Below, one piece after another: positions 6,816 to 40,383 of a stretch of DNA of 40,747 nt. The stretch is taken from positions 1 through 40,747 of the forward strand of contig CAZFHY010000026.1 in NCBI GenBank assembly GCA_964519305.1. Reading direction: 5' to 3'. Each line of letters begins with the position of its first letter. Position 1 is the stretch's first letter. The position numbers were made by a program, and so were the translations under genes. The notes beneath the pieces were generated by a model. That model saw only the letters and a program-made list of their open reading frames with translations. It did not search any database and was not told where the DNA came from. Origin of the DNA: Candidatus Undinarchaeota archaeon (GTDB lineage: Archaea > SpSt-1190 > JASMDC01).

Positions 6816-9064
6816 CGTTTCGGCTTGAGGAACTGTACGACGTCGCTCGCACCTATCTTGTGAGACTCTACGCCGATCTCCTTCACAGGTTCACCGAACC
6901 ATTGGATGACGTTATTGAGGAGCGATAGGTGGTAGCCCTGGAGGTTGGAGTCGTTGAACAGGTCCGAGTCGCCGCACAGGATAACCTTACCCTTCCCCAG
7001 CTCGAGCCCGGCCATGAACACGATGTAGCCCCTCTTCTCGAACTCGTCGGGCGTGAGATTGAAGTTCTGGTCCGCGAAAGACGCTTTGCTACCCCATACG
7101 AGGGGCTGGACCTTCTTGTTCTCGATGGTGATGGAGCAGGCAGCATTGATGCGCACGCCGATGAGCCCCCGTGTGATGGGGTGGTTCGCGAGGCCCTCTA
7201 GGATCGGAGTGTAGCTCACGTTCCCGCCCTTGTCATAGTCACAGATCAGGTCGGGATTGAAGTAAGCACCCAGTTCGCCGACCACCTGGTTCAGGTACTC
7301 GTTGTTCTTCTGGTCGCCACCCCACTCGGCGACGATAAAGAGCCTCAGCCCCTTCTGCTTAACGTACCCGTGGATGAGCGCGATCTCCTCCCGGGAGAAC
7401 GGTTTGCGTGGCACCCCGATGACAAGGATGTCCCCTTCCTTTGGCTGGATGAAGAATGTCTTGAGGAACACCACTTTACCGAACCGCTTGAACACTTCGT
7501 ACATCTTACTGAACTCGGTCACGTTCTCGGCCACGAAGTTGCCGTGCGTACCGTCGACGAAGATTGTCGGTCGCGCGAGGACGGGCGCCCTCGCGTGCTG
7601 CCGTAGGACGATGATGATCATGATTGCCAGTACCGCGGCCCCGGCGAACACGATGGTCGACAGGTGACGGAATGAACCCATGATGGTATTGGCGGCGATG
7701 GCCGAGTCCTCGGACGAAATGACCGCTGTGCAGTTCACCTGGTCGGGTATCGCCCCGACGAGCTGCTGTGTCTCATTGGCCGATGACTCTAGCGCGTCGA
7801 GACGGGTCATGACCTCTGAGAGGTCGACCTCGGGCATGACTACCTCTTCCGTCGGTCGCGGGAGCGAGCGCGCTATCGCGGTCCTGTCCTGGTACTGTGA
7901 CACCACGCTGGGACGGCGGGGGAACCCGAACGCGTACACCGTGGCGTCCATGGAAGTGAACACCAGGTCCATGGTCTCGTCCCCCAGCAGGTCTGCGATC
8001 ACCGGCGAACCCCGGGTCGGGTACGTCATGTGGAACGACCAGATCTCGGCGCCGGCAACGTCGATGACACGTGTGTTGTTCTCCCCGGTGCCGTAGGCGA
8101 TATCGGGTCGTCCGTCACCGTCAAGGTCGCCCACGGCGGGCCGACCAGTGACGGCGTGGCTGCCCGTGTTCCACTTCAGGCCGCCCTTGGCATCGATGAT
8201 GTAGAGCCCGCCCTCGGCCGAACCCACCAGTACATCGAGCGAACGGTCTCCGTCCAGGTCGGTGAGCATCGGTGTCGCGGTAACGGCGCCCTGGGTACGG
8301 AAGGTCCATTGTGTGGTCCCGTCGCTGGCGATGGCCGTGACCACGCCCGCGTCGGATCCCACGAGCACTTCCAGCGAGCCGTCGCCGTCCAGATCGGCAG
8401 CGACCGGCGCGGTGCGGATCCGGCCCTCCCCGGTGAAGGTCCACTCGACCTCCTGGGTCAGACCATCGAGCACGGTGAGAGTGCCGTCGTCGGCGCCCAG
8501 CACGACCTCGTTCCCTCCGTCGCCGTCAACGTCGACGATGAGCGGCGCGGCGAGCACGTCGCCGCCGAGCTCGTGCTTCCATAACAGGATACCCCGGGCC
8601 GCGAACGCGTATGCGTTATTGTCCTCGGAGCCGACCACTATGTCCGGTACACCATCGCCGTCGATGTCGCCCACCGCAGCGGCCGCAGAGATGGAACCTC
8701 CGGTATCGAAGTGCCAGCGGTGGGCCCCTGTATGGTCGAGCACGTACACGGCACCGTCGGCCGAGCCCACGATGACCTCGAGCGTCCCATCGCCGTCAAG
8801 GTCGGCGGTCACGGGCGACGAGGTCACTGCGCCGCCGGTCTTGTACTTCCACTCGAAACCGCCGTCACCCAGGATGCAGTAGACGTTTGTATCGTAGCTG
8901 CCGACCACGACCTCCAGGGTACCGTCACCCTCGAGGTCGGCGACTGCGGGCGAGGTCGCGAAACCCACCTCCCCGCTGTAGGTCCATAGCACACCGGGCT
9001 GGCCGAGGGAAAGTGCCAACAGGAGGATGAAGGCCGTCGCCGGGACATCATGCCACCTACCCAT
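6812..9064 (-). CDS. Membrane protein: signal peptide, FG-GAP/PQQ-like beta-propeller, TM helix, C-terminal GIFT/DUF4350-like domain
   Basis: About 8 ADLDGDG..EV.VGS repeats; hydrophobic helix IVFAGAAVLAIMIIIVL; C-terminal D.THG...P...FS.EEI..I..YV...G...GKGKV...GD. Confidence 0.85.
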   Translation of the reverse strand: MGRWHDVPATAFILLLALSLGQPGVLWTYSGEVGFATSPAVADLEGDGTLEVVVGSYDTNVYCILGDGGFEWKYKTGGAVTSSPVTADLDGDGTLEVIVGSADGAVYVLDHTGAHRWHFDTGGSISAAAAVGDIDGDGVPDIVVGSEDNNAYAFAARGILLWKHELGGDVLAAPLIVDVDGDGGNEVVLGADDGTLTVLDGLTQEVEWTFTGEGRIRTAPVAADLDGDGSLEVLVGSDAGVVTAIASDGTTQWTFRTQGAVTATPMLTDLDGDRSLDVLVGSAEGGLYIIDAKGGLKWNTGSHAVTGRPAVGDLDGDGRPDIAYGTGENNTRVIDVAGAEIWSFHMTYPTRGSPVIADLLGDETMDLVFTSMDATVYAFGFPRRPSVVSQYQDRTAIARSLPRPTEEVVMPEVDLSEVMTRLDALESSANETQQLVGAIPDQVNCTAVISSEDSAIAANTIMGSFRHLSTIVFAGAAVLAIMIIIVLRQHARAPVLARPTIFVDGTHGNFVAENVTEFSKMYEVFKRFGKVVFLKTFFIQPKEGDILVIGVPRKPFSREEIALIHGYVKQKGLRLFIVAEWGGDQKNNEYLNQVVGELGAYFNPDLICDYDKGGNVSYTPILEGLANHPITRGLIGVRINAACSITIENKKVQPLVWGSKASFADQNFNLTPDEFEKRGYIVFMAGLELGKGKVILCGDSDLFNDSNLQGYHLSLLNNVIQWFGEPVKEIGVESHKIGASDVVQFLKPKR

Positions 9065-9471: not shown

Positions 9472-9544
9472 AGCCCCGTAGTGTAGCGGTCAATCATCGT
9501 GGACTCTGGATCCATGGACCCTGGTTCGAATCCGGGCGGGGCTA
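9472..9544 (+). tRNA. tRNA-Gln (CTG)
   Basis: Acceptor stem AGCCCCG/CGGGGCT, anticodon loop CTCTGGA, T-arm GGTTCGAATCC; CCA not encoded; BRE/TATA AAAGGTTAAAAA at about 9424-9436. Confidence 0.95.
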
Positions 9545-22973: not shown

Positions 22974-23531
22974 ATGGATGATCGAACACTTCTTCGTATC
23001 GTACTGATTATCAGCATCGCGTCGCTCGCAGCGACGTCTGCCGTGCTGGTCGAGATGCGTGGTGGGAGTGGCACCGCCGCGCCCGGGGGAGAGGGCGCGA
23101 GTCCGCCGGCTAACTATGGGAATCCCTGTCCCTGTTCCCTACCTACCGACTGCGACCGGAACCCATCCCGCTGCGAAGACTGCACGAGTGAGTGCGGGGA
23201 CGATGAGAGCTGCTTCTCATCATGCAAGCGCTGCGTGGAGGGATGCTATGATGGCGATACAATCTGCTATGAGATGTGCATAGAATGCGTCAGGCCGTGC
23301 AATGGCGACGAAGAGTGTTACAGTATATGCGAAGGCTACCGTCCCCGCTTTAACCCCCACTCCGGCGTGGGATCCTATTACATAGGCACCTTCAAGGAGA
23401 TCGCACGGGCCTGCGACCACGATAATGTCTGTATCGAGCGTTGCATTGACGAACTCGGGAATCTGGCCCGTTATTACGGCCGGGATGGTGCGCCGCTCAC
23501 CTGCCTCTCGCGGCCCGAGAGCACGGGATGA
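22974..23531 (+). CDS. MDDRTLL-leader protein with Cys-rich repeats
   Basis: Leader plus PPANYG, then repeated C..C...C..D..C...C. Confidence 0.75.
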   Translation: MDDRTLLRIVLIISIASLAATSAVLVEMRGGSGTAAPGGEGASPPANYGNPCPCSLPTDCDRNPSRCEDCTSECGDDESCFSSCKRCVEGCYDGDTICYEMCIECVRPCNGDEECYSICEGYRPRFNPHSGVGSYYIGTFKEIARACDHDNVCIERCIDELGNLARYYGRDGAPLTCLSRPESTG

Positions 23532-24436: not shown

Positions 24437-25576
24437 GTGGTGACCATCAAGGAACGGACCATAAAGGGCCGGACCTATGTCTACGTTGCAGCTTCTACAT
24501 CGTACAAGGGTGAGAAGAAGAGGTTCGAGAAGCTTGTTGGTCCGAAAGGATTGGATCCCAAGGAGGAGGAGCACAGGAAAGAGTACCTTTCGAGGATCGT
24601 CGATCTTAAAGCTAACTATTATCGCACCTATCTGAGCATCATCCGCGATCCTCTGCGTTACCTCACATCTAAGCACCATTTCTATCTGGGAACCATCGCC
24701 TGGCAGTACCAGCAGTTCTTATCGGACCTGTACCCTCGAGCGCGTGAAAAATACGAGCAGGAGCACGAGGTGCGGTACGTCCACAACACGACCGCCATCG
24801 AGGGAAACACCCTAACCCTCCGTGACACACAACTCGTGCTCGAGCACGATCTTGCGCCGAACGGGAAGGACCTAAGAGAGGTCCATGAGGTTGAGAACTA
24901 CAAGCAGGTCCTCAAGTACGTCCGCTCCTACGAGGGGGATTTCTCCATGGACCTCGTCCTCACGCTCCACGGGCTCATCCAGCGCAACATCGACGATGAC
25001 ACAGCGGGTCACTTTCGACGGATCAACGTTGCCATCAGTGGGAGCACCTGGGAGCCGACACCCTTTCCCCTCGTGGAGCAGGAGCTTGAGAATCTAATCG
25101 CGTGGTATCATGCCCACAAGAAGGACCATCACCCGTTCGAGCTGGCCGGTATGGTCCACCACCGGTTCCTGCAGATCCATCCCTTTGTCGACGGGAACGG
25201 TAGGGTCGCCCGCGAACTGATGAACGTGATACTGCGACGGAACGGATATCCGACCATCATCATCCCGGTCAAGGAGCGTGCGGAGTACATGACGACGCTT
25301 GAGAAGGCGGACAGTGGGGATCTAACTCCTCTCATGCAGTACTTCTTCAAGGTCTTTCTGGACGACTATCGCGATGTGATCGTTGAGTTCTTCCGAGAGT
25401 GGTCCAAGGAGGCAGAATCGAAGGATGGGTCCATGGATGCCCGCGAGGTGGAAGCGTTCCAAGAATTAGTTGCTTGGTTCAACAACCTGTTCACAGACAT
25501 TCTATCCATCGAGGTCGAGTTCAAGCTTGGGATTGCAGAAGCACTAGAGAGCGCCTCTAATGCCCCCAGTTCGTAG
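24437..25576 (+). CDS. Fic family protein (AMPylase)
   Basis: Intact HPFVDGNGRVAR, TTAIEGNTL; visibly more AT-rich than neighbours. Confidence 0.95.
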   Translation: MVTIKERTIKGRTYVYVAASTSYKGEKKRFEKLVGPKGLDPKEEEHRKEYLSRIVDLKANYYRTYLSIIRDPLRYLTSKHHFYLGTIAWQYQQFLSDLYPRAREKYEQEHEVRYVHNTTAIEGNTLTLRDTQLVLEHDLAPNGKDLREVHEVENYKQVLKYVRSYEGDFSMDLVLTLHGLIQRNIDDDTAGHFRRINVAISGSTWEPTPFPLVEQELENLIAWYHAHKKDHHPFELAGMVHHRFLQIHPFVDGNGRVARELMNVILRRNGYPTIIIPVKERAEYMTTLEKADSGDLTPLMQYFFKVFLDDYRDVIVEFFREWSKEAESKDGSMDAREVEAFQELVAWFNNLFTDILSIEVEFKLGIAEALESASNAPSS

Positions 25577-26416: not shown

Positions 26417-26593
26417 GGTAACAGTGTGCGGTCGCGCGGGGATCGGTTCAAAAAGGTTGGCTTGGGGTGCGGAGGGGTACTACCGCCGGTCGTGGGAGTT
26501 CTATTTGACCAAGAAAGGTGATAGAATGACCGTTAATGTCCGCAGGTGGTGATGCTGAAGTGTATCTGGGAAATCGGAATATTAATATAACCC

Positions 26594-26611
26594 GTAGTAC
26601 ACATGTACTAC
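26594..26611. promoter_or_regulatory. Palindromic operator of the RHH-RelE TA operon
   Basis: GTAGTACA-CA-TGTACTAC between TATA (TTAATATAA 26582-26590) and ATG 26623. Confidence 0.7.
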
Positions 26612-26622
26612 AAGGTGCTGGG

Positions 26623-26850
26623 ATGCCGACCGTACAAGTACGCCTCGGAGACGAGCTGGTAAGGACCGTCGACGCAGCGGTGGAGAAGGGTATCTATCCG
26701 AACAGGTCTGAAGCGGTCAGAGATGCCCTGAGGAGGCTCTTCGCACCGGAACTGAGGGAAGAGGTGCTGGTCGAGGTCCTGAAGAGGTCACAGGGCGCGT
26801 CCTCGGAATTCACGTCCCAGAGCGAGATCGAGGCCGAGTTCGGGATATGA
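26623..26850 (+). CDS. Ribbon-helix-helix (CopG/Arc) antitoxin
   Basis: TVQVRL..ELV..VD..VEKG.YPNRSEAVRDALRRL; acidic tail. Confidence 0.9.
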   Translation: MPTVQVRLGDELVRTVDAAVEKGIYPNRSEAVRDALRRLFAPELREEVLVEVLKRSQGASSEFTSQSEIEAEFGI

Positions 26851-27116
26851 TGGCGTACCGGATAATCTGGCACCGGAAGGCCCTGAAGGAGCTGAGGAAG
26901 CTACCCAAGGATATCGCTCTTCGGTTCATCAGGCGGGCACGTGATCTCAACGAGTACCCCGCAAAGGGCTCACGTCCACTGACAGGATCCCGGTTCCGGA
27001 GCATCCGGGCAGGGGAGTACAGGGCCGTCCTCGATATTGACCACGACAGCCGGACCGTCAGGGTCCTTCTCATCGGCCACCGGAAGAACGTCTACAAGGG
27101 CCTACTCGAGCTGTGA
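26847..27116 (+). CDS. relE: RelE/ParE-family toxin
   Basis: A.KELRKL, RSIRAGEYRAV, IGHRKNVY; overlaps the antitoxin stop. Confidence 0.92.
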   Translation: MMAYRIIWHRKALKELRKLPKDIALRFIRRARDLNEYPAKGSRPLTGSRFRSIRAGEYRAVLDIDHDSRTVRVLLIGHRKNVYKGLLEL

Positions 27117-27172
27117 CCTGGGACGGAGCGCCCCCGTCGGGTTTATATCCGTTAACTCCCCCGGGGAGCACC

Positions 27173-27790
27173 ATGGACGACCGGACGCTCCTCCAGCTCG
27201 TACTGGTCATCTCGGTGCTGACACTGGTCGGCAACGCCCTTGTGCTGAACGAGGTACGCTCGGCGGACGTACCGGCCGGTGGCCCCCCCGCCAACGTCCT
27301 TGACCTGAAGGCGTTCACCATGGCCGACTTCCCGGTCAAGACCAGGGACGACGGGCGAGGGACGTTCTGCGTCAGGAACACCTACTCGAAGTCGTTCAAC
27401 GTGTACTCCCAGTGGTACACCAAGGTGGGCACCCTGGAGCCGGGCCAGACGCGGTGCGCGTACGGACTCCTTCGCCGGGACGTCTCTATCCAGGTGTACG
27501 ACCGGTCGTGCAACAACCACCACGCGTCGCTGGATTCGGTCACCTACCCCACCGGCAAGTGCATCCTGGTGAACGGGTGTCCGAGCTCGTGGGTGTACAG
27601 CTGGCAGGGTGGGCGCGTCAAAACGATGAAGCCCTGCTTCCCATACGTTGCGCCCACGCCTGTGCCCACGCCCACGCCTGTGCCCACACCCACGCCCCGC
27701 CCAACACCGTACCCCACGCCTGAGGGCTCCCCGATCCCCACGTACGATCCCTGGTCGAACCCCGGTGGCCTGAACACCCGCGACAGGTGA
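27173..27790 (+). CDS. MDDRTLL-leader protein (beta-rich Cys domain, PT tail), paralogue 1
   Basis: Leader plus GPPAN; TTTATATCC box about 25 nt upstream; near-identical to 27843-28454. Confidence 0.85.
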   Translation: MDDRTLLQLVLVISVLTLVGNALVLNEVRSADVPAGGPPANVLDLKAFTMADFPVKTRDDGRGTFCVRNTYSKSFNVYSQWYTKVGTLEPGQTRCAYGLLRRDVSIQVYDRSCNNHHASLDSVTYPTGKCILVNGCPSSWVYSWQGGRVKTMKPCFPYVAPTPVPTPTPVPTPTPRPTPYPTPEGSPIPTYDPWSNPGGLNTRDR

Positions 27791-27842
27791 GCGCCAGGGC
27801 CGCGTCGTCGGTTTTAAATCCCTTCCCCCTGTCGGCGAGACC

Positions 27843-28454
27843 ATGGACCACCGCACGTCCCTCCGCCTCGTACTGGTCATCTCGGTGCTGGCACTGGCCG
27901 GCAACGCCCTGGTGCTGAACGAGTTGCGCTCGGCGGACGCAACGGCCGGTAAGTTACCCGCCAACGCCGCGACAACGAAGGCGTTCACCATGGCCGACTT
28001 CCCGGTGAGGACCGCGGACGACGGGAGAGCGACGTTCTGTGCCAGGAACGCCTACTCGAAGCCGTTCAACGTGTACTCCCAGAGAAATAACAAGGTGGGC
28101 ACCCTGGAGCCGGGCCAGACGCGGTGCGCGTACGGCCTCGACCGTCGGGACGTCTCTATCCAGGTGTTCGACCGCTCGTGCAACAACAATCTGAAATCGC
28201 TGTGGGATACCACCCCCAGGGCCAAGTGCATCCTGGTGAACGGGTGCCCGATGTCGTGGGTGTACAGCTGGCAGGGGGCGCGCGCCACGTACATGAAACC
28301 CTGCTTCCCGTACGTTGCGCCCACGCCGGTACCGACCCCCACGCCGGTACCGATCCCCACGCCGGTCCCAACGTCGTACCCCCTGCTGCCGGGTCCTCCG
28401 CTCCCCACGGACGAGCCCTGGAAGCCTGGCGACCTGGGATCCCGGGAACGATGA
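27843..28454 (+). CDS. MDDRTLL-leader protein, tandem paralogue 2
   Basis: MDHRTSL leader plus LPAN; TTTTAAAT box upstream; shared KAFTMADFPV...KCILVNGCP.SWVYSWQG. Confidence 0.85.
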   Translation: MDHRTSLRLVLVISVLALAGNALVLNELRSADATAGKLPANAATTKAFTMADFPVRTADDGRATFCARNAYSKPFNVYSQRNNKVGTLEPGQTRCAYGLDRRDVSIQVFDRSCNNNLKSLWDTTPRAKCILVNGCPMSWVYSWQGARATYMKPCFPYVAPTPVPTPTPVPIPTPVPTSYPLLPGPPLPTDEPWKPGDLGSRER

Positions 28455-28463
28455 GCGGACGGA

Positions 28464-28575
28464 ATCAGGTCCTAGAAAGAAAATAGGGCATAGTATAGCG
28501 GGGGGAAGGAAGTAAATTCCAGGTGCCACACCATGCCCTTGTGATAAAAATTACCCGTCCGGAGTTGATAAACCT
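28464..28575 (-). ncRNA. Promoter plus hairpin small RNA, copy 1
   Basis: Minus strand: GGTTTATCAA box, then stem AGGGCATGGTGTGGC/GCTATACTATGCCCT around a pyrimidine-rich loop, then a U-rich tail; homologous to 31682-31785. Confidence 0.6.
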
Positions 28576-28663
28576 GTCCTTTCGGGTGCCGTCACGTCCC
28601 TCTAGGCCCGGTCCGGGACCTCCCCGACGAAACGTTTAATACTTGGAACGCGATTGCCCTGCC

Positions 28664-30802
28664 ATGGCCCGACGCGACCACCTACCGCTCCTCACGACGG
28701 TGCTCATCATAACAGCGCTCCTGTCCATGGTATCCGTGGCCGGGTGCGACACAGGTGCCGGCATGAACTGCCGGACCCATCCTGCCGATTGCCCCTGCGA
28801 CATGCCCGATGCGCCCATCTGCGACCCGCTCAACCCGGGCGCCGACGAACGCGGGTGCTTCAGCGAGGGCTTCGACCATAGAACCGAGGGCGGCGTACTG
28901 AACTGCTGCCAGCCGAACGACGGGACCGGGAAGGAGGCATGCATGGTAGGGGAGCACGATCCGTGCCCGGGGGACTACAGGAAGATCCCGGGCGAATGGG
29001 TCGACCCGGGCAACCCCTCCAACTGCGCCATGGTCGAACACAGGGCCGACCCCCGGATGTGCGGCGATCCCCACGCTGGCCAGCCCATGGGCGGGGATGG
29101 TGCCCAGATCAGGATCGAACCGAGGCTCTTCAGGGAGCGCGAGCCGGTGGAGGTATGCGGCACCCTCATCACGCTCACCGGGCTGCCGGACAGACCGCCT
29201 GAGGCCCACTTCGAGATCGTCCACCGGGACGGTGCCCGCGAGAGCTTCATGGTGCCGCTGGACCCGGGTTTAGAGCACGCGTACTTCCATTTCTACGACT
29301 TCGCCCTCGTAAAGGACCGCGGGGAGATCAGGGTCGAGGGGAACGCGGTCGAGCTCAGCGTGCACAAGCGTGACGACTGCGGTCCCTTCCCCCCTGCTGA
29401 TGCCGGTGCGGGTGGCGACCGCCCTCCAGATGATCCGTGCGCGCGGTGCAACTGGGAGTGCGAGCAGCCGTGCGAGATCTGCAAGCGGGAGGGCCGTGGC
29501 GCCGAGTGCGACGGGCCCTGCAGCCACGACTTTTTGAAGGAGTGCAGGGGCCGCGAGTGCGTCCAGGTGTGCGGGGGCGTACCGGTCGACCGGCCGCCCG
29601 AGGACCCGTGCGCTCGGTGCAACTGGGACTGCGGGCAGCCGTGCGAGATCTGCAAGCGGGAGGGCCGTGGCGCCGAGTGTGACGGGCCCTGCGGCCACGA
29701 CACTTTGAAGGAGTGCATGGACCGCGAGTGCGTCAAGGTATGCGTCGGCGAACCAGGCGATATGAACCGCGATGACATATCCATCGGCGACCGTGGCGAC
29801 ATGGAGAAGCGGGAGGGGGTCCCCCCTGCCAGTGACACCGGCCTGTCCAACGGCGCGGCCTGTGCCGAGGACGACCAGTGCGCCAGCGAGAACTGCATCT
29901 CGGGCGTGTGCTGCATCGACGGGAAACAGTGCTGCCGCGCGGACAAGGACTGCGAGCAGGGCAAGACCTGCGACACGGAACGTGCGTACTGCACCGGAGC
30001 TTCGGACGCCATCGAGTTCTTCAAGGAGTACTGGGAGATCGTGGCCGCCGCCCTCGGTTCGCTGGGAGCTGCTGCCTACTACCTCAACATGGTCAAGCGC
30101 AAGACCATCGGCGAGGAGAAGGTGGTGATCCGCCGTGGTAAGACCATGGAGGGCAACGCCGTGAAGCTGGGCATCAAGGTGAAGAACGACTCCACGTTCA
30201 AGATCACCGAGGTGAAGGTCACCATCGACTATCCCAAGGCCTTCAAGGTGGAGGGCGGCTCGCCCACCGTGGAGCTGGGCAACATCCGGCCCGACGAGTT
30301 CCAGAGCGCCATCTTCAAGCTCGTCCCCATGCGGTGCGTGAAGGGCACAGTGACCGGGTACACCACCTACGAGAACAACAAGGGCGAGACCAAGGTAGTC
30401 CAGATCGATCCCGTGGACGTGGGCAGTGTCTGCCCGTTCCTCGAGCGGGTCCGGCTCTCTCCGGACGAGTTCGCCCAGCGGAAGCCCACCCTGCAGAGCG
30501 GGAACAAGAGCATGACCGTCCGGACCGATGCCAACAGGATCTTCGAGCTGATCAAGGGCAGGTTCAACAACATCCACACCGTGCACGAGGAGGTGAGCCC
30601 CGACCAGACGAGCATGCTCGGCGAGTACTCGGGCCAGGGTGCGTACAGCAAGGCCTTCATCGGCGCCAGTATCAAGGTGGTCTACGGCGACCAGCCGCAG
30701 GTCGAGCTGTCGGTGTACGGCGAGGACGAGGCCATGGTCACCGGGCTGCTGAGCGAGCTGGTGGACCTCATCGAGAAGGAAGAGGGCATCGGCGAGGTGT
30801 AG
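28664..30802 (+). CDS. Type I membrane protein: Cys-rich ectodomain, TM, cytoplasmic beta-sandwich plus platform (adaptin-appendage-like) domain
   Basis: Signal peptide; two 57-aa repeats with 10 Cys each; TM IVAAALGSLGAAAYYL; C-terminal PFLERVRLSPDEFAQR...EEVSPDQ...VELSV...LLSEL. Confidence 0.85.
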   Translation: MARRDHLPLLTTVLIITALLSMVSVAGCDTGAGMNCRTHPADCPCDMPDAPICDPLNPGADERGCFSEGFDHRTEGGVLNCCQPNDGTGKEACMVGEHDPCPGDYRKIPGEWVDPGNPSNCAMVEHRADPRMCGDPHAGQPMGGDGAQIRIEPRLFREREPVEVCGTLITLTGLPDRPPEAHFEIVHRDGARESFMVPLDPGLEHAYFHFYDFALVKDRGEIRVEGNAVELSVHKRDDCGPFPPADAGAGGDRPPDDPCARCNWECEQPCEICKREGRGAECDGPCSHDFLKECRGRECVQVCGGVPVDRPPEDPCARCNWDCGQPCEICKREGRGAECDGPCGHDTLKECMDRECVKVCVGEPGDMNRDDISIGDRGDMEKREGVPPASDTGLSNGAACAEDDQCASENCISGVCCIDGKQCCRADKDCEQGKTCDTERAYCTGASDAIEFFKEYWEIVAAALGSLGAAAYYLNMVKRKTIGEEKVVIRRGKTMEGNAVKLGIKVKNDSTFKITEVKVTIDYPKAFKVEGGSPTVELGNIRPDEFQSAIFKLVPMRCVKGTVTGYTTYENNKGETKVVQIDPVDVGSVCPFLERVRLSPDEFAQRKPTLQSGNKSMTVRTDANRIFELIKGRFNNIHTVHEEVSPDQTSMLGEYSGQGAYSKAFIGASIKVVYGDQPQVELSVYGEDEAMVTGLLSELVDLIEKEEGIGEV
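29417..29750 (+). repeat. Intragenic tandem repeat, 171-nt period, two copies
   Basis: DRPP.DPCARCNW.C.QPCEICKREGRGAECDGPC.HD.LKEC starting at 29417 and 29588. Confidence 0.95.
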
Positions 30803-30809
30803 GTGCACC

Positions 30810-31565
30810 GTGGACGACCGCACGCTGCTGCAGCTGCTGCTCGCGGTAACGGTGCTCGCCCTAGCGCTCAACCTGTACACCCTGACCGCTGTGCGGACAC
30901 AGGCCGCGGCAGGTGCACCGCTCAACGCTCCCTGCTTGTCACCTTTCGGGTGCCCTTCAATAGATGGCCCTCCGGCGAACTACGGGCGTGTCGATCACTT
31001 CCTGGACCAGAAGCAGGGCTTATCCTTCGACAGGCGCTCGACGAGCCCCTACGGGTACGTAGGGCCCCTTTCCTTGAACGGTGAAGAGCTGGCGTCCGAC
31101 ATTATCGTTACCGGTCCCGACGGCGGGGAGAGGAAGGTGTTCTGCGTGCTCGGGTTATTCTCCTGGAGCACACATCCATACAAGCCGATGATGTTCGACT
31201 GCATGGTCTCTGCTCACAACGCCCGGATTATCGGTGACATGCTCCTCCAGTACCAGTCCGGCCCGGAGCGGCAGATGGAGCTGGAGCTGGCGTTCGACAT
31301 CTATCAACCCGATACCCGTCGCTATGGGGATGGGTACTACGAGGCTGCCAGTGGGGAGCTCAAGTGCCCGGTCCTCAAGGAGGGGAACGGGGACCTGGCC
31401 ATCAACATCGAGGATGAGTCGTTCCGCGTGGGCGGATCCCAGGAGCTCAACCGCATGTTCTTCATGGCAGCGCCGCCGTTGGAACATTCGAACGAGATCC
31501 AGCTCACGGACGCGAGTGATCCGGCGGCAAAATACGTGAAGGTCTTCGGTGGACCTGCCGTATAG
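30810..31565 (+). CDS. MDDRTLL-leader protein with beta-rich payload
   Basis: GTG start; leader plus GPPANYG; payload unrelated to other family members. Confidence 0.8.
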   Translation: MDDRTLLQLLLAVTVLALALNLYTLTAVRTQAAAGAPLNAPCLSPFGCPSIDGPPANYGRVDHFLDQKQGLSFDRRSTSPYGYVGPLSLNGEELASDIIVTGPDGGERKVFCVLGLFSWSTHPYKPMMFDCMVSAHNARIIGDMLLQYQSGPERQMELELAFDIYQPDTRRYGDGYYEAASGELKCPVLKEGNGDLAINIEDESFRVGGSQELNRMFFMAAPPLEHSNEIQLTDASDPAAKYVKVFGGPAV

Positions 31566-31582
31566 CGCGGGGAGACCGGCCA

Positions 31583-31637
31583 TAGGCTTTTATCCCTGCA
31601 CTCCCTAGAGGGCCGATATGGACGACCGCACGCTGCT
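31583..31637 (+). repeat. 55-bp direct repeat (promoter plus start of MDDRTLL leader), copy 1
   Basis: TAGGCTTTTATCCCTGCACTCCCTAGAGGGCCGATATGGACGACCGCACGCTGCT; 54/55 identical to 35295-35349. Confidence 0.95.
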
Positions 31638-31707
31638 CGAGCTCGTTCTAGCGGTTGCGGTGCACACTGTCAGGGGAGTGTATCAGGAGCAAGAAGGTCG
31701 GACATGA
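31618..31707 (+). pseudogene. Truncated MDDRTLL-leader ORF (29 aa)
   Basis: MDDRTLLELVLAVAV, then similarity is lost and the ORF stops within the hairpin element. Confidence 0.7.
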
Positions 31708-31785
31708 TGCAGCGGGGGGAAGGAAGCAAATCCAGGTGCCACACCATGCCCTGTACATACTGACCCGTCCGGAACTTAATATTCT
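31682..31785 (-). ncRNA. Promoter plus hairpin small RNA, copy 2
   Basis: Minus strand: AATATTAAG box, then stem GGGCATGGTGTGGC/GCTGCATCATGTCC with the same loop as copy 1. Confidence 0.6.
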
Positions 31786-31923
31786 GTGTATAGGATGTCG
31801 TTACGGTATTGGGGATCCGCCCGGACGTCGGTGGCCTCTGTAGCGTACGGGGAAGGTGATGCCGCCTGTCGGGATCAGATCGAATTGAATAGTGGCCGTG
31901 ATGACCGCGCGGTGCGACGCTCG

Positions 31924-33972
31924 CTACCCGTCCTCGATGGTGAGTGTGAACTCCTCCACCCCGTACCACTCGTAGCAGCGGTCCCGGTGGGTGACGTTGC
32001 ACTCGGCGTCGGGCACGTACGCGCACAGTTCGCGCTCGCATGCGTTGCATCCCTCGGCCGGTTCCAGGCACTCGATGCCGTCGTCGCTCCAGACGTCGCA
32101 TAGGGGGAGGTACTCGCACACGTCCACGTGGAAGATCCACTCCCCCGCCGGCGCGGTCGCCGGGTCATCCGGGAGTTGGAGGGTGGTGGGGATGGTGTTC
32201 GCCTGCTCCCCGAACACCTTCACGCCGCCCGGGTCGGTGAACCATGTGTTGGGGCTGCACTCGGCGGGTCCGTCCAGGCACGCAGCGGGAACGGCCGCCC
32301 GCAGCTGCGAGAGCAGGTCGTCGAGCCCCATCTCCTCCAGCTCGTCGATGAAGGTGGCGTCGAGCTGGAGCTCGAGGGAGCCCTGGCCGTCCAGGGCGGC
32401 GAGGTGCGGGTAGACGCAGAAGCACCGCTCCTCCTCCACTATGTTGTTGATCGCGACGTAGATGTCCCTCGTGCCCCATTCACGCTCCATCCTGATGGTC
32501 GAGGGGATGCTGAGCATGACCTTCTCGTTCTTGGTCTGTATGTCCATCAGTATGCGCGCCCTCATGCTGTCGGAGATGTCATCGGCCATGTCGTTGATGC
32601 CCTCGCTGGCCGGGATGAGGCTCGCGTCGTACTCGCAGTGCGAGGCGGCCGCCCAGTCGCCCGTGGGCTCGCAATCCCCGAAGCTGCTGTCGAACGGGCA
32701 GCCCGGGTCGCCGGTCTCCGCGTGGTCGGGGAGCTTCTCCAGGAGACCGACCATGCCGTCCAGTGTATCGAACTCGCACCCCACGATCAGCTCCTTGTAG
32801 ATGATCGCAAAGCCGCAGGTCCCATCCTCCATCATGCTAACGACGAACGTCTCGACCGGCTCCACCCCCTCCTCCGTCACGTTGACCGCCGCCCCGCTGC
32901 AGTCGGCGGCCAGGTCCAGGAAGCACGCGTAGTCGTGCCCGCAGTCGGCGGGCTCCCCCGGCGGCGTCTCGGATGGCCACGGCGCTGCCGTGGGGGACGG
33001 CGATGGCTCCGGGGTGGGCTCAGGCGTCGAGGTGGGCGTCGGTAACGGGGCCTTGGTGGGCGACGGCGACGGTGAGGGGACCTTAGTGGGCGTTGGTGAC
33101 GGGGCCTTCGTCGGCGACGGTGATGGTGCCTTGGTGGGTGACGGCGAGGGCGCCTTCGTGGGCGACGGCGACGGATCATCCCGTGGTGTCGGTGACGGGG
33201 TGGCCGATGGCACCGGCCGCCCCTTGATGGTGAACGTCACGGTCCGGGTGGCGGTGTTGCCCGCCTCGTCCTCGGCGGTGATCTCCAGCTCATGCTTCCC
33301 CGGCTCGGTGACCCACGTGCCGCTCTCGAAGGGCTCGCCGTTGAGCAGGACCTCCTTGACGCGGAGGTTGTAGTCGTCCACGGTGACGAAGGGCATGGCC
33401 TCTTGGTCGAAGGTCCCGCCCTCCTTTATCCCGCTGACCTTGATCTTGGGCCCGGTCCGGTCGATGGTGAACGAGAACGCCTTCGTCCCCTCGTTCCCGG
33501 CCGAGTCCGTGGCGACGACCGTGAGGGTGTGATCGCCCTCGTCGCTCACCTCGGTCCCGCTCTCGTACGGCTCACCGTTGAGTGTGACGGTACGCACCGA
33601 CAGGTGCGCGTCCTCGATGGTCACCTTCGGCGTGACCGCCGTGGCGTAGACCGCTCCCGCCTCCACGCCCTCGATGGTGATGGTCGGCGGCGTCCCCTCC
33701 ATGTAGACCGAGGCGATGACGCCAACCAGCCCGAGGACGAGGACGCCGACGAGGACGGCCCACATGAGCGCCGTCCTGTCCCGGGCGGGCGCACCGGACG
33801 TGTGGGAGGGATGGGCCGGCCGGTAGACGGCGGGCCGCCCGTCCATGGGGAGCGCGGCGTCGACCTCGGCCGGAGGCCACCCTGCGTTCACGAGCAGTCG
33901 GCGTATCATCCACGGCGGTGTGCCGCGGTTGACGTAGTACTGGATGGCGTACACGAGCTGCTGGCTGACCAC
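31924..33972 (-). CDS. Type II membrane surface protein: cytoplasmic helical motif, TM, two Ig-like repeats, PSPTKA linker, Cys-rich C-terminus
   Basis: Two TxTD.AGN Ig repeats; (A)PSPSPTK repeats at about 33000-33200. Confidence 0.85.
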   Translation of the reverse strand: MVSQQLVYAIQYYVNRGTPPWMIRRLLVNAGWPPAEVDAALPMDGRPAVYRPAHPSHTSGAPARDRTALMWAVLVGVLVLGLVGVIASVYMEGTPPTITIEGVEAGAVYATAVTPKVTIEDAHLSVRTVTLNGEPYESGTEVSDEGDHTLTVVATDSAGNEGTKAFSFTIDRTGPKIKVSGIKEGGTFDQEAMPFVTVDDYNLRVKEVLLNGEPFESGTWVTEPGKHELEITAEDEAGNTATRTVTFTIKGRPVPSATPSPTPRDDPSPSPTKAPSPSPTKAPSPSPTKAPSPTPTKVPSPSPSPTKAPLPTPTSTPEPTPEPSPSPTAAPWPSETPPGEPADCGHDYACFLDLAADCSGAAVNVTEEGVEPVETFVVSMMEDGTCGFAIIYKELIVGCEFDTLDGMVGLLEKLPDHAETGDPGCPFDSSFGDCEPTGDWAAASHCEYDASLIPASEGINDMADDISDSMRARILMDIQTKNEKVMLSIPSTIRMEREWGTRDIYVAINNIVEEERCFCVYPHLAALDGQGSLELQLDATFIDELEEMGLDDLLSQLRAAVPAACLDGPAECSPNTWFTDPGGVKVFGEQANTIPTTLQLPDDPATAPAGEWIFHVDVCEYLPLCDVWSDDGIECLEPAEGCNACERELCAYVPDAECNVTHRDRCYEWYGVEEFTLTIEDG

Positions 33973-39145: not shown

Positions 39146-39904
39146 TCAGGTCTTGTACTTGAATTCCTTCTTCAGAGCCTTCACAACGGTGTGGTAATCA
39201 ACGAACTCGTTCGTGAGATGTCCGATGTCCTGTTCCCACATCGAATAGATCTTCCTTGCATTCCTGAAGATACGTTCGATACTGAACTCTTCCTGAGCCT
39301 CTTTGACCTTGCTCCTGACGAGGTCCATATCGATCTTCTTGTTCCTCGAGATTATCATGTAGACGTCGAAGTAGTCTCTTGGCTGGTTCCTTGTTATCAT
39401 TGCACGTACTTTCTCTGCAACAAGCTCGTCCTGGCAGAGTGTCGTGATCGTGAACTCCGGTATCAGTTCATAGAAGTGTGGGACCTTCATTTCTGACGGT
39501 TCGAGGATGACCGAAGCCTTTCTGTTCAGGTCCAGGATCAATGAACTATCCCTCTGGAAATACCCTTTGTAGCGGATTATCATCCGTGTGGAGTCTTCCG
39601 TCATGTTGTCGAAAGAGATGGCAGGAAAGAAGGCCCTGTGGTCCTTCAACATGATTTCTATCTCGTTCTTGATGCTCTGGATATCCCTCGTACATGAGAA
39701 GTCCAGATCCTCGCTCAATCTCTTATGGCAAAGGAATATCTTGTTGAGAGCGGTTCCGCCTTTGAACACGATCCCTTTGATATCCTTGAGATAGAAGAGC
39801 AGCATCGTAAGGAAATAATCCTTCTCCAGATAGATGAGATTGAATCCCTTCTCCCCAGCAAGGTAACGCAACTGGGCTTCGGTCATCCTCTTGAGTTCAG
39901 CCAT
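39146..39904 (-). CDS. AbiEii-family nucleotidyltransferase toxin (type IV TA)
   Basis: EKDY, FKGGTAL, RLSEDLDF, AEK, RD.FD; AT-rich. Confidence 0.92.
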   Translation of the reverse strand: MAELKRMTEAQLRYLAGEKGFNLIYLEKDYFLTMLLFYLKDIKGIVFKGGTALNKIFLCHKRLSEDLDFSCTRDIQSIKNEIEIMLKDHRAFFPAISFDNMTEDSTRMIIRYKGYFQRDSSLILDLNRKASVILEPSEMKVPHFYELIPEFTITTLCQDELVAEKVRAMITRNQPRDYFDVYMIISRNKKIDMDLVRSKVKEAQEEFSIERIFRNARKIYSMWEQDIGHLTNEFVDYHTVVKALKKEFKYKT

Positions 39905-40383
39905 TCTATAACATCCTCCCTCGGCGCGATACGGAACGAATGTCCCTTGACCTTTCTTATCACTGCTCTTTGAAGACCGTTCTTCCTGGTCCGCTTGAAG
40001 ATGATCGTGAAATCAAAGATCGTTCTTTTCCCCTGCCGGTTCATGCACTGGACCTCGATCATCGTCGGTATCTGTTCGATAAGGCCCCAGTAATGGGCAG
40101 CAGCCATTCCGCGGATCACATAATCGTTCCCATCGAACATCTCATCAATGATTATGAAGGGATGCTCGGACCAGTGCCCCCGGAAAGCTCTCACGGGTAT
40201 GAGGTAGTATTTCTCCTTGGTCAGTTTCAGTATCCTTCCCTTCTTCTTCAATCGATGAAGGTAGACGCCAAGATCGTTCTCGTTCTTGAAGAACCGTAGG
40301 ATCTCTTTCCTGGTGAAGAAGGATCTCTCATTGAGCTCAAGATACGAGACTATCTCGATCTCTTTACTTGAGAGTCCTTCCAT
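39883..40383 (-). CDS. AbiEi-family antitoxin / winged-helix regulator
   Basis: LHRL.KKG.I.KL..EKY, AA.YWGL.EQIP; overlaps the toxin gene. Confidence 0.88.
   Translation of the reverse strand: MEGLSSKEIEIVSYLELNERSFFTRKEILRFFKNENDLGVYLHRLKKKGRILKLTKEKYYLIPVRAFRGHWSEHPFIIIDEMFDGNDYVIRGMAAAHYWGLIEQIPTMIEVQCMNRQGKRTIFDFTIIFKRTRKNGLQRAVIRKVKGHSFRIAPREDVIEWLNSRG

Follow-up and report, generated by a model that had tools for sequence, protein, structure and literature searches.

A candidate lineage-specific small RNA family with a promoter-like box and a conserved hairpin in a genus of uncultured marine archaea

Two homologous units on the minus strand

The window analysed here, a stretch of 40,747 nucleotides (positions 1 to 40,747 of contig CAZFHY010000026.1 in the Candidatus Undinarchaeota archaeon assembly GCA_964519305.1), carries two homologous units of ~140-160 nt on its minus strand, unit A (28454..28596) and unit B (31670..31828), whose full extents were delimited by blastn among the seven oriented segments that hold the copies described below. 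Unit A faces the end of a plus-strand gene for an MDHRTSL-type small membrane or secreted protein (27843..28454) and unit B that of a plus-strand gene for an MDDRTLL-type protein (30810..31565); the former protein belongs to no Pfam family, and neither gene is part of a unit. The original prediction had described both window copies as facing an MDDRTLL gene, and both do face an MD(D/H)RT(L/S)L gene end; it had also claimed two homologous minus-strand stretches, which the alignment, a common box (TCCGGACGGGT) and an identical 5' arm (GGGCATGGTGTGGC) confirmed.

The same parts recur in both units, all on the minus strand. When scored with a promoter profile derived from the sequences upstream of 22 tRNA genes in the same genome, the BRE/TATA-like box of unit A, CAGGTTTATCAA (28565..28576, score 8.3), ranked in the top 0.05% of genome positions and that of unit B, CAGAATATTAAG (31775..31786, score 6.3), in the top 0.1%, with the 12-mers starting at -38 and -35 relative to the stem, respectively. 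Between the TATA-like box and the stem lies TCCGGACGGGT (28553..28563 in A and 31763..31773 in B), which is exact in both units and of which the sister-genome copies retain GGAC alone. Hairpin A (28486..28538; 5' arm 28525-28538, loop 28500-28524, 3' arm 28486-28499) and hairpin B (31700..31751; 5' arm 31738-31751, loop 31714-31737, 3' arm 31700-31713) each consist of a 14-bp stem and a conserved loop of 24-25 nt that is near-identical between them. Their 3' arms differ at five positions and, as had been predicted, every change keeps pairing, with all 14 standard pairs retained in A and B through exchanges of the G-C/G·U or U-A/U·G type. A pyrimidine-rich tail follows, which in A (28457..28485, beginning UAUUUUCUUUCU) contains CUGAU (28463-28467) and CCGUCC (28457-28462) and ends 3 nt away from the convergent gene's stop codon, and which in B (31670..31699) contains CUGAU (31682-31686) and T runs of at most two. 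Loop, TATA-like box and tail are present in each copy, as the original prediction had stated.

The units are discrete: homology stops ~70 nt before and ~30 nt after the hairpin, and the neighbours are unrelated. In the blastn comparison unit A matched the sister-genome copies G1_12129 (82% over 140 nt) and G1_15055 (78% over 145 nt), and unit B matched G1_9347 (86% over 133 nt) and G1_15055 (76% over 167 nt); the flanks of unit A were unrelated.

Copies, pairing and strand

A covariance model of the unit found three copies in the 3.63-Mb genome (E-values from 2e-22 to 9e-21, the next match at E = 0.6), the genome-wide count that the original prediction had proposed, and four in the genome of the sole congener. 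Beyond the genus the model gave no match at E up to 0.01 in the 15 others of the phylum's 17 genomes and no copy in 44 further archaeal genomes, the best value among these 59 other archaeal genomes being E = 0.17. A pattern scan of genome contigs returned only the four sister-genome sites, and a metagenome scan returned seven loci, four of which score exactly as the sister-genome copies. The other three were discarded as spurious, two having no model match and one an E-value of 0.39. The family thus comprises seven copies in two species of one genus of uncultured marine archaea, with A-type and B-type units common to both species and one syntenic C-type locus in addition. In the syntenic pair the hairpin is identical at 52/55 positions, as against 34/52 and 41/64 (~65%) in the adjoining non-coding DNA and 411/451 in the upstream coding sequence, and we conclude from this sequence comparison that the hairpin of the pair is under purifying selection. 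Among the sequencing runs listed for window positions 27000-32500 none is an RNA run; Logan contigs from four DNA runs (two studies) cover both window copies without differences. The sister genome's contig that is syntenic with the window ends at window position ~26510, before the units, and hardly any DNA of its array contig finds a match in the genome studied here.

On the minus strand the hairpin is the core of the minimum free energy fold in both A and B. The folding z-score is -2.93 for a 112-nt stretch of A and only -0.67 for a 104-nt stretch of B, where 48/200 shuffles fold equally well; relative to mononucleotide shuffles, the isolated hairpins reach z-scores of -6.0 in A and -3.9 in B. 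Across the seven copies 117/119 stem cells are paired (98.3%), compared to 35-54% when the partner is slid, and the observed paired fraction and covariation score were equalled by 2/500 and 1/500 shuffles, respectively. Two further measures were unremarkable, namely double-change pairs (41/500 shuffles) and further pair types (429/500). Three stem pairs have changed on both sides, all of them in the C-type lineage, and they may therefore represent a single set of events.

The nine variable columns of the 3' arm contain transitions only, and the non-Watson-Crick cells of the stem in the seven copies are 16 G·U/U·G versus one C·A and one U·U. Predicted energies are -25.6 kcal/mol on the minus strand versus -16.8 on the plus strand for hairpin A and -23.4 versus -12.3 kcal/mol for hairpin B. 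In five of the seven copies the hairpin of the minus-strand RNA exceeds its complement in stability; for the C-type pair the plus-strand fold matches or surpasses it. In the loop, the invariant blocks ACCUGGA and UUCCUUCCCCCCG flank a variable A/U-rich centre. The copies beyond A and B, which might have broken the pairing, retain it, and together with the wobble bias across the small set of seven copies in two species they support the earlier claim of selection on RNA structure and on the minus strand: the hairpin is under structural selection on the minus strand, with strand-biased use of wobble pairs.

A proposed small-RNA gene and competing explanations

The best profile match within a 145-nt scan starts at -35 to -38 from the stem in all seven copies and falls in the top 0.016-0.1% of genome positions, and in the C-type pair it is kept in both copies even though their TATA-like box sequences differ. 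The unit thus has a candidate promoter of its own, in the sense of a sequence match at a fixed distance and not of a mapped start, which lends support to its earlier description as promoter-bearing.

On balance we lean towards an undescribed, lineage-specific small non-coding RNA gene; its function would reside in the invariant 5' arm and the C/U-rich loop. A BRE/TATA-type promoter ~35 nt upstream would start transcription 1-4 nt before the 14-bp stem, as judged by the promoter geometry of the genome's own tRNA genes, and the transcript would consist of the 52-55-nt hairpin and the pyrimidine-rich tail, perhaps 60-100 nt in total. The 3' arm would be free to vary only as long as pairing with the almost invariant G/U-rich 5' arm persists, and the stem would display the C/U-rich loop for recognition by a partner that may be either a purine-rich, Shine-Dalgarno-like mRNA stretch (in trans, as with anti-RBS or C-rich-loop sRNAs) or a protein. 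Transcription, the RNA ends and action in trans are what we infer for this gene. A run of four Ts directly after the stem occurs in two of the seven copies only (A and G1_12129), and hence no common terminator is seen.

Rfam 15, run over the whole window at gathering thresholds, reported only a tRNA-Gln at 9472, and for both units at E up to 10 the best match reached 13.6 bits with eukaryotic lncRNA models, whose gathering scores are 36-80; the units are thus undescribed there, as had been claimed. Archaeal C/D box sRNAs have a C box (RUGAUGA) near the 5' end, a D box (CUGA) near the 3' end and a k-turn. RUGAUGA is absent from all seven copies; CUGAU follows the stem by 20-25 nt in four of the five array-type copies, with CUGUU in the fifth, and is absent from the C-type copies. 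In archaeal H/ACA sRNAs a pseudouridylation pocket opens inside the hairpin, a k-turn or k-loop is present, and an ACA box follows the stem on its 3' side. The stem of the units is 14 continuous pairs free of internal loops and no conserved ACA follows it. Target prediction, which the original prediction had proposed, was run as loop duplex energies and gave no enrichment, the mean being -11.7 kcal/mol for 2938 mechanically called 5' regions versus -11.4 kcal/mol for CDS-internal controls. At up to one mismatch, the complement of the 5' arm occurs nowhere else.

Since a co-oriented gene lies 49-267 nt upstream of six of the seven copies and four copies lie between convergent genes, the unit might instead be a 3'-UTR or terminator-proximal element of that upstream gene, with read-through transcripts folding the hairpin and perhaps an outer helix that stabilises or ends the mRNA, and with the TATA-like box merely an A/T-rich part. 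Such a helix can be drawn between GGACG of the TCCGGACGGGT box (28553-28563) and CGUCC at 28457-28461. RNAalifold on five copies adds this possible 5-bp GGACG/CGUCC helix, and 22/24 of its cells pair, with one compensatory change; the helix would need a transcript start upstream of the predicted one. In addition, GGAUU(U)CCUUCCCCC recurs at two other intergenic sites (contig C18), both downstream of large genes, where it precedes a GC hairpin and a U-rich tail. However, the outer helix is lost in the sister-genome copy G1_C52 and weak in B, copy A has a divergent neighbour in place of a co-oriented upstream gene, and the upstream genes of the copies are mutually unrelated. As the profile match moreover keeps its fixed distance in 7/7 copies despite the sequence change in the C-type pair, we regard a 3'-UTR origin as unlikely.

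The layout of the copies also invites an explanation at the level of DNA, in which the hairpin would fold in single-stranded DNA as a recombination site or cassette boundary (integron-attC-like or att-like) or would belong to a low-copy mobile unit, the alternative that the original prediction had named. The copies form same-orientation arrays at 2.8-3.2 kb spacing, two in the window 3.2 kb apart and three on the sister-genome contig G001:C64 at 2.8 and 2.9 kb, all on the minus strand, and the positions of these arrays are not syntenic between the species. Unrelated accessory genes (Fic, DUF1016/YhcG, ATPase_2/DUF234, TPR, surface proteins) lie between copies, with ParDE and another Fic nearby. 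A-type and B-type units retain 82-86% similarity across species amid unrelated flanks, synteny breaks ~45 nt downstream of the C-type copy in the sister genome, and conserved boxes upstream of the TATA-like box add to the array-like layout. Against this, no tyrosine recombinase was found on the window contig (C26) or on the contig of the third copy (C15), the genome's four PF00589 matches lying on contigs C14, C29, C6 and C17, and none was found among 46 ORFs scanned with Pfam (window; G001:C64, 6.1-17.5 kb). On reading the copies we found no attC-type core sites or extrahelical bases, and no terminal inverted repeats or target duplications were recognised at the unit ends, while three copies here and four in the sister genome compare with the tens to hundreds of MITE or REP elements. 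Viral contigs gave no matches. In the four DNA runs no contig joint ends at the hairpins except for graph branching at a shared 22-mer, the listed joints having short sides (26-45 letters) or branching at that 22-mer. The inter-copy segments hold two ORFs each in mixed orientation, and the contigs of these runs showed no gain or loss variants. We consider such a DNA element quite improbable. Separately, a template/variable repeat pair of a diversity-generating retroelement was rejected, with no reverse transcriptase among the scanned ORFs and A-B differences that are not adenine-specific.

More doubtfully still, the units might at the same time be the junctions of a cassette system in this large-genome Undinarchaeota relative, that is, strand-specific hairpin sites with an outward promoter between ~3-kb accessory blocks (toxin-antitoxin-type, Fic, nuclease, ATPase and surface-protein genes) that are exchanged by a recombinase encoded elsewhere. 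This would explain the persistence of A-type and B-type units across species while the intervening DNA differs.

The original prediction had also suggested that the RNA may regulate the MDDRTLL family, citing as weak evidence the complementarity of the CAUGGUG arm to CACCAUG at the 27173 start codon; regulation of the family by such pairing at start codons is, we consider, very improbable. The complementarity exists but is unspecific and at chance level, with 1178 occurrences of the 7-mer on the two strands of the genome and a match at 20/2955 mechanically called starts. A family gene is faced by two of the three own-genome copies, CACCATG is found at the starts of five of the 12 family genes and CACCGTG at one, and with the family's TATA boxes placed ~33 nt ahead of the ATG the mRNAs would be nearly leaderless and carry the site at their 5' terminus. 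Yet the claimed linkage did not hold up, in that only two of the seven copies face such a gene, both inside one 9-kb cluster, and ten of the 12 family genes have no copy. No sister-genome copy lies beside a called family gene: three adjoin ATPase_2/DUF234, Fic, DUF1016/YhcG or TPR genes and the fourth is 161 nt from a contig end. The third own-genome copy lies between a surface-protein gene and an HD-type ORF. Furthermore, the arm is sequestered in a stem whose energy is -23 to -27 kcal/mol, and its complement has a longest family match, by reading, of 9 nt.

As a side observation, the loop resembles the TATA-plus-CCCTTCCCCC promoters of two MDDRTLL-type genes (27843 and C16:76028). Derivation of the unit from a family promoter was dropped because the other ten family promoters lack the CCCTTCCCCC box.

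Finally, it is scarcely tenable that the unit encodes a tiny protein beginning with MVWHL, for although the ATG, 5 nt inside the stem, would be suitably spaced from the TATA-like box for a short-leader mRNA and four copies have a common ...LPSPR... frame, the frame differs between A-type and B-type copies through loop indels of 1-3 nt, the ATG is replaced in three copies (ATA in the two C-type copies, ATT in G1_12129), a stop interrupts G1_9347 at codon 7, and predicted lengths and C-termini are unrelated among copies. We conclude from the sequences, as the original prediction did from the frameshift between A and B, that the unit is non-coding, with neither start codon nor frame kept.

Known systems and significance

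Among archaeal intergenic sRNAs, loop 2 of Methanosarcina mazei sRNA154 and sRNA41 are described as masking a ribosome-binding site with a loop (PMC5867862). The candidate RNA resembles them as a small intergenic RNA with a candidate promoter of its own and a stable stem-loop, and its pyrimidine-rich loop could likewise pair with purine-rich RBS sequences. It has no sequence or Rfam relation to them and its loop shows no 5'-region enrichment. Multi-copy arrays in variable DNA are not known as a feature of sRNAs of this type.

In staphylococcal Rsa-type sRNAs, C-rich (UCCC) loop motifs are thought to bind G-rich Shine-Dalgarno regions. As in these RNAs (PMC2790875), the conserved part of the candidate structured small RNA is an unpaired C-rich block. 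The Rsa RNAs differ in being bacterial, unrelated in sequence and equipped with Rho-independent terminators, whereas the C-rich run of the units is CCCCCC within a 24-27-nt loop.

Integron attC sites have inverse core sites R'' (RYYYAAC) and R' (GTTRRRY) at the stem base, extrahelical bases and an unpaired central spacer. The units are like attC sites, including those of archaeal integrons, in being same-orientation, strand-specific, imperfect hairpins of ~50-150 nt between unrelated accessory genes, toxin-antitoxin-type genes included. They are unlike them in that no copy has R''/R' at the stem base or bulges, no integrase is encoded on the contig, the segments are ~3 kb with two mixed-orientation genes, and each unit has a promoter-like box. 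With REP/BIME palindromes and MITEs the units have in common that they are short structured intergenic repeats, frequently located between convergent genes and strand-biased in their G·T/G·U pairs, but they differ in their three to four copies per genome, their long conserved loop, their conserved promoter-like and upstream boxes and the absence of recognised terminal repeats or target duplications.

Hardly any regulatory RNAs are known from DPANN-related and other uncultured archaea. Our literature search for small RNAs of Undinarchaeota returned no dedicated paper, and in the portions of text it covered both terms co-occur in passing only. The unit is confined to an unusual lineage in which genomes are three to six times as large as in its relatives. 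The result is modest, a candidate new lineage-specific RNA family, but as a compact promoter-like box and hairpin, with a C/U-rich loop that is sharply conserved and a structure selected in a strand-specific way, the unit is a clean, testable candidate. Should cassette junctions be what it marks, a new mode of building archaeal variable regions would be indicated; if it is transcribed, it would offer a first handle on RNA-based regulation in this archaeal group.

Anatomy and distribution of the hairpin unit

The two homologous repeats on the minus strand, unit A (28454-28596) and unit B (31670-31828), share one order of parts: upstream boxes, an A/T-rich box (CAGGTTTATCAA at 28565-28576 in A, CAGAATATTAAG at 31775-31786 in B, both minus strand), a box TCCGGACGGGT, a hairpin and a pyrimidine-rich tail in which CUGAU lies 20-25 nt past the stem. 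Each hairpin (28486-28538 and 31700-31751, minus strand) has a 14-bp stem and a loop of 24-25 nt, and the 3' arms of A and B differ at five positions with standard pairing kept in every pair; the original prediction had described the homology, box, hairpin, tail and arm changes accurately. Conserved boxes lie ~70-40 nt before the stem and read CCGTRACGRC... in the array-type copies (A, B and three copies of a sister genome). A short inverted pair, GGACG/CGUCC, surrounds the unit, with 22 of 24 cells paired and one compensatory change, and is lost in the sister-genome copy G1_C52. A T-run terminator common to the copies was not seen, T4 following the stem only in A and G1_12129.

The genome-wide count suggested with the original prediction came to three copies in the own genome (G000) and four in the sister genome (G001), its sole congener in the analysis. 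A covariance model of the hairpin (R1), built from three copies, matched the 3.63-Mb own genome at A, B and a third copy, C, at G000:C15:101320-101382 (minus strand), with E = 2e-22 to 9e-21, the next-best match (E = 0.6) being the opposite strand of A. One sister-genome copy is syntenic with copy C, forming the C-type pair, and the other three lie on a single contig, all on the minus strand, at spacings of 2.8 and 2.9 kb. Only these two of the 17 genomes of the phylum, which are also the 17 of the class, gave R1 matches, and the best match among 59 other archaeal genomes had E = 0.17. When 185,579 species genomes were scanned with an exact pattern, the four G001 sites alone came back; a metagenome pattern scan gave these four again, with the same model scores, and three loci that proved spurious, and the viral contigs scanned held no copy. 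The units matched no Rfam family, in agreement with the earlier suggestion of an undescribed element, and the portions of the literature retrieved on small RNAs of Undinarchaeota held only passing mentions. We conclude that the hairpin unit is real and apparently undescribed.

The own genome has 38 tRNA upstream regions, of which 22 supplied a BRE/TATA profile of 12 columns. Over a 145-nt scan of each copy, the best match to this profile starts at -35 to -38 relative to the beginning of the stem in all seven copies, which, being homologous, do not amount to seven independent trials. By score these matches rank among the top 0.016-0.1% of the genome positions sampled, and their fixed placement bears out the TATA-like box first proposed by eye. 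The C-type pair has diverged here (34/52 identical), yet both members retain a high-scoring box at the same place. The archaeal TATA centre usually lies about 26-27 nt before the start, and with such spacing transcription from the box would begin 1-4 nt before the stem.

Several other sites recall parts of the unit. A fourth copy, now decayed, may survive at G000:C8:81116-81138 (minus strand), where CUUCCUUCCCCCC from the loop and a portion of the 3' arm can be read; the fold there is no better than shuffles (z = 0.24), the R1 match has E = 2.8 and no obvious TATA-like box was seen. Two intergenic sites downstream of large genes, G000:C18:85790-85990 and C18:72070-72270 (both minus strand), carry GGAUU(U)CCUUCCCCC, like the unit loop; behind it come a GC-rich hairpin, with compensating differences in its arms, and a U-rich tail. 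These sites may be related small RNAs or elements resembling terminators. At G000:C6:4270-4480 (plus strand) a TATA-like box precedes AAUUUACUAACUUUCCUUCCCCCCGG, which resembles the unit loop, and a perfect GC hairpin; a tyrosine recombinase (C6:6092-6580) lies ~1.7 kb away, and a tRNA-Glu at 7127 is also close by. The own genome (3.63 Mb, 59.6% GC, 99.8% complete, 4.3% contamination) and the sister genome (about 3.8 Mb, contigs labelled Undinarchaeales) exceed the remaining 15 genomes of the phylum and class (0.6-1.2 Mb) three- to sixfold in size.

Pairing, strand and constraint

Standard pairs fill 98.3% of the 119 stem cells in the alignment of seven sequences, and the further copies keep the pairing; sliding the 3' partner by 1-3 columns as a control lowered the paired cells to 35-54%. 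Both sides change at three pairs (G-C to A-U), all within the C-type lineage, and one-side variation at five pairs always runs through G·U or U·G. Shuffles reached the paired fraction in 2/500 cases and the covariation score in 1/500, and the counts of double-change pairs (41/500) and extra pair types (429/500) were unexceptional. Because relatedness between only two species inflates these figures, the stem structure is well supported but shallowly sampled.

Wobble cells (G·U or U·G) number 16, and C·A and U·U occur only once each; the variable columns of the 3' arm, nine in all, show transitions only, and the 5' arm, rich in G and U, hardly varies. Among the array-type copies, all five have a minus-strand hairpin RNA that is more stable than the complementary one (A: -25.6 vs -16.8 kcal/mol); no such advantage is seen in the two C-type copies, with their almost entirely Watson-Crick stems. 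Hairpin z-scores range from -3.9 to -7.6 (mononucleotide shuffles), and wider contexts of 104-112 nt gave -2.93 for A and only -0.67 for B.

The hairpin is under purifying selection. In the syntenic C-type pair its identity is 52/55 (94.5%), compared with 34/52 in the non-coding sequence before it, 41/64 after it and 411/451 in the upstream coding sequence, and the three differences are a loop C/U, a U·G to U-A and a C·A to C-G.

Genomic setting and alternative readings

Six of the seven copies have a co-oriented ORF 49-267 nt upstream, and a convergent gene end follows four of the seven after 27-134 nt. That the unit is a 3'-UTR or terminator-proximal element would fit the position of those six and a possible outer helix, but neither copy A nor the conserved promoter match fits it, and we consider it unlikely.

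Copy C follows a surface-protein gene and precedes, by 67 nt, an HD-domain-like ORF (HD assigned by reading). Three of the four sister-genome copies adjoin ATPase_2/DUF234, Fic, DUF1016/YhcG and TPR genes, and the fourth is 161 nt from a contig end. All array copies sit in variable accessory DNA that is non-syntenic between the two species, and units of the A and B types keep 82-86% similarity across the species, with unrelated flanks. Same-orientation arrays, accessory cargo and turnover of flanks are what a DNA-level cassette junction or recombination site might leave; however, no recombinase was found on the window contig, on the contig of copy C or among the ORFs scanned around the G001 array, no attC-type motifs or bulges were read in the copies and no structural variants were found in four DNA runs, making this decidedly unlikely and, as the boldest option, a slim prospect.

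Some 45 nt past the C-type copy of the sister genome, where the HD-type gene has its TATA box, synteny is lost. There, extra DNA (G001:C52:1-161 and the end of G001:C117) separates the copy from that gene's promoter; the two contigs break at this point, and their inner ends both bear similar GGGAAG(Y)CCC...GAGGGG hairpin-like sequences. Within the window, the Fic gene (24437-25576; segment 24321-25552) is missing at the syntenic G001 place, with ~1 kb of other DNA further on; the syntenic contig ends near 26510, just before a ParD/ParE pair (26536-27116). At 39146-40383 (minus strand) an AbiEii-type nucleotidyltransferase toxin gene adjoins a weak AbiEi-like antitoxin ORF.

A and B face MD(D/H)RT(L/S)L genes, and the original prediction had tied the hairpin to this MDDRTLL family. 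The family has 12 genes in four clusters, and only two of the genes, both in the window, have a unit. Because the other copies lie elsewhere, most family genes lack a unit, and the proposed CAUGGUG:CACCAUG start-codon match involves a common 7-mer in an arm inside a closed stem, the linkage comes down to a local coincidence in a single cluster of the family; an RNA regulating these genes is largely contradicted and very improbable. Still less credible is a small-protein gene, largely contradicted in that loops differing in length by 1-3 nt put the MVWHL ORF of A-type and B-type copies in different frames, three copies lack its ATG (ATA, ATA, ATT) and one meets a stop at codon 7; the unit has no coding potential, as originally supposed.

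The MDDRTLL paralogues (in the window 22974-23531, 27173-27790, 27843-28454 and 30810-31565; others on G000 C8, C16 and C17) begin M(D/N)(D/H)R(T/S)LL and continue with a hydrophobic helix and a (P)PAN motif. Most members have a TATA box ~33 nt before the ATG, and their mRNAs would therefore be nearly leaderless; the three members scanned matched no Pfam family. The 719-aa protein beside unit A (28643-30802, plus strand) and the product of the gene immediately preceding copy C (L003 1601-2977, minus strand) have a module in common (Cys-rich stretch, membrane helix, ~260-aa C-terminal domain). Since the sister genome joins an 87%-identical C-terminal part to a different N-terminus (G001:C31:38613-39388), these proteins look, from sequence, like a modular surface-protein family, for which Pfam gave no family.

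A candidate small RNA

The unit is a discrete repeat whose fold is maintained by wobble pairs specific to one strand and by some compensatory changes, with a promoter-like box at a fixed distance, and we lean towards reading it as a small non-coding RNA gene. The upstream boxes, the GGACG/CGUCC pair and the missing shared terminator are unexplained under this reading. The RNA would be transcribed from the promoter-like box, would measure roughly 60-100 nt and would expose as its putative working surface the invariant 5' arm and the loop blocks ACCUGGA and UUCCUUCCCCCCG. Its C/U-rich loop on a long stem looks like the anti-RBS loops of M. mazei sRNA154 and sRNA41 (PMC5867862), and staphylococcal Rsa RNAs carry comparable C-rich motifs (PMC2790875).

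The loop of copy C reads ACCUCCUU, like the 16S 3' end. The target prediction envisaged originally gave no enrichment in scans with the hairpin loop and 5' arm, and the partner of the hairpin RNA may therefore equally be a protein. The unit is a candidate lineage-specific small structured RNA of narrow distribution.
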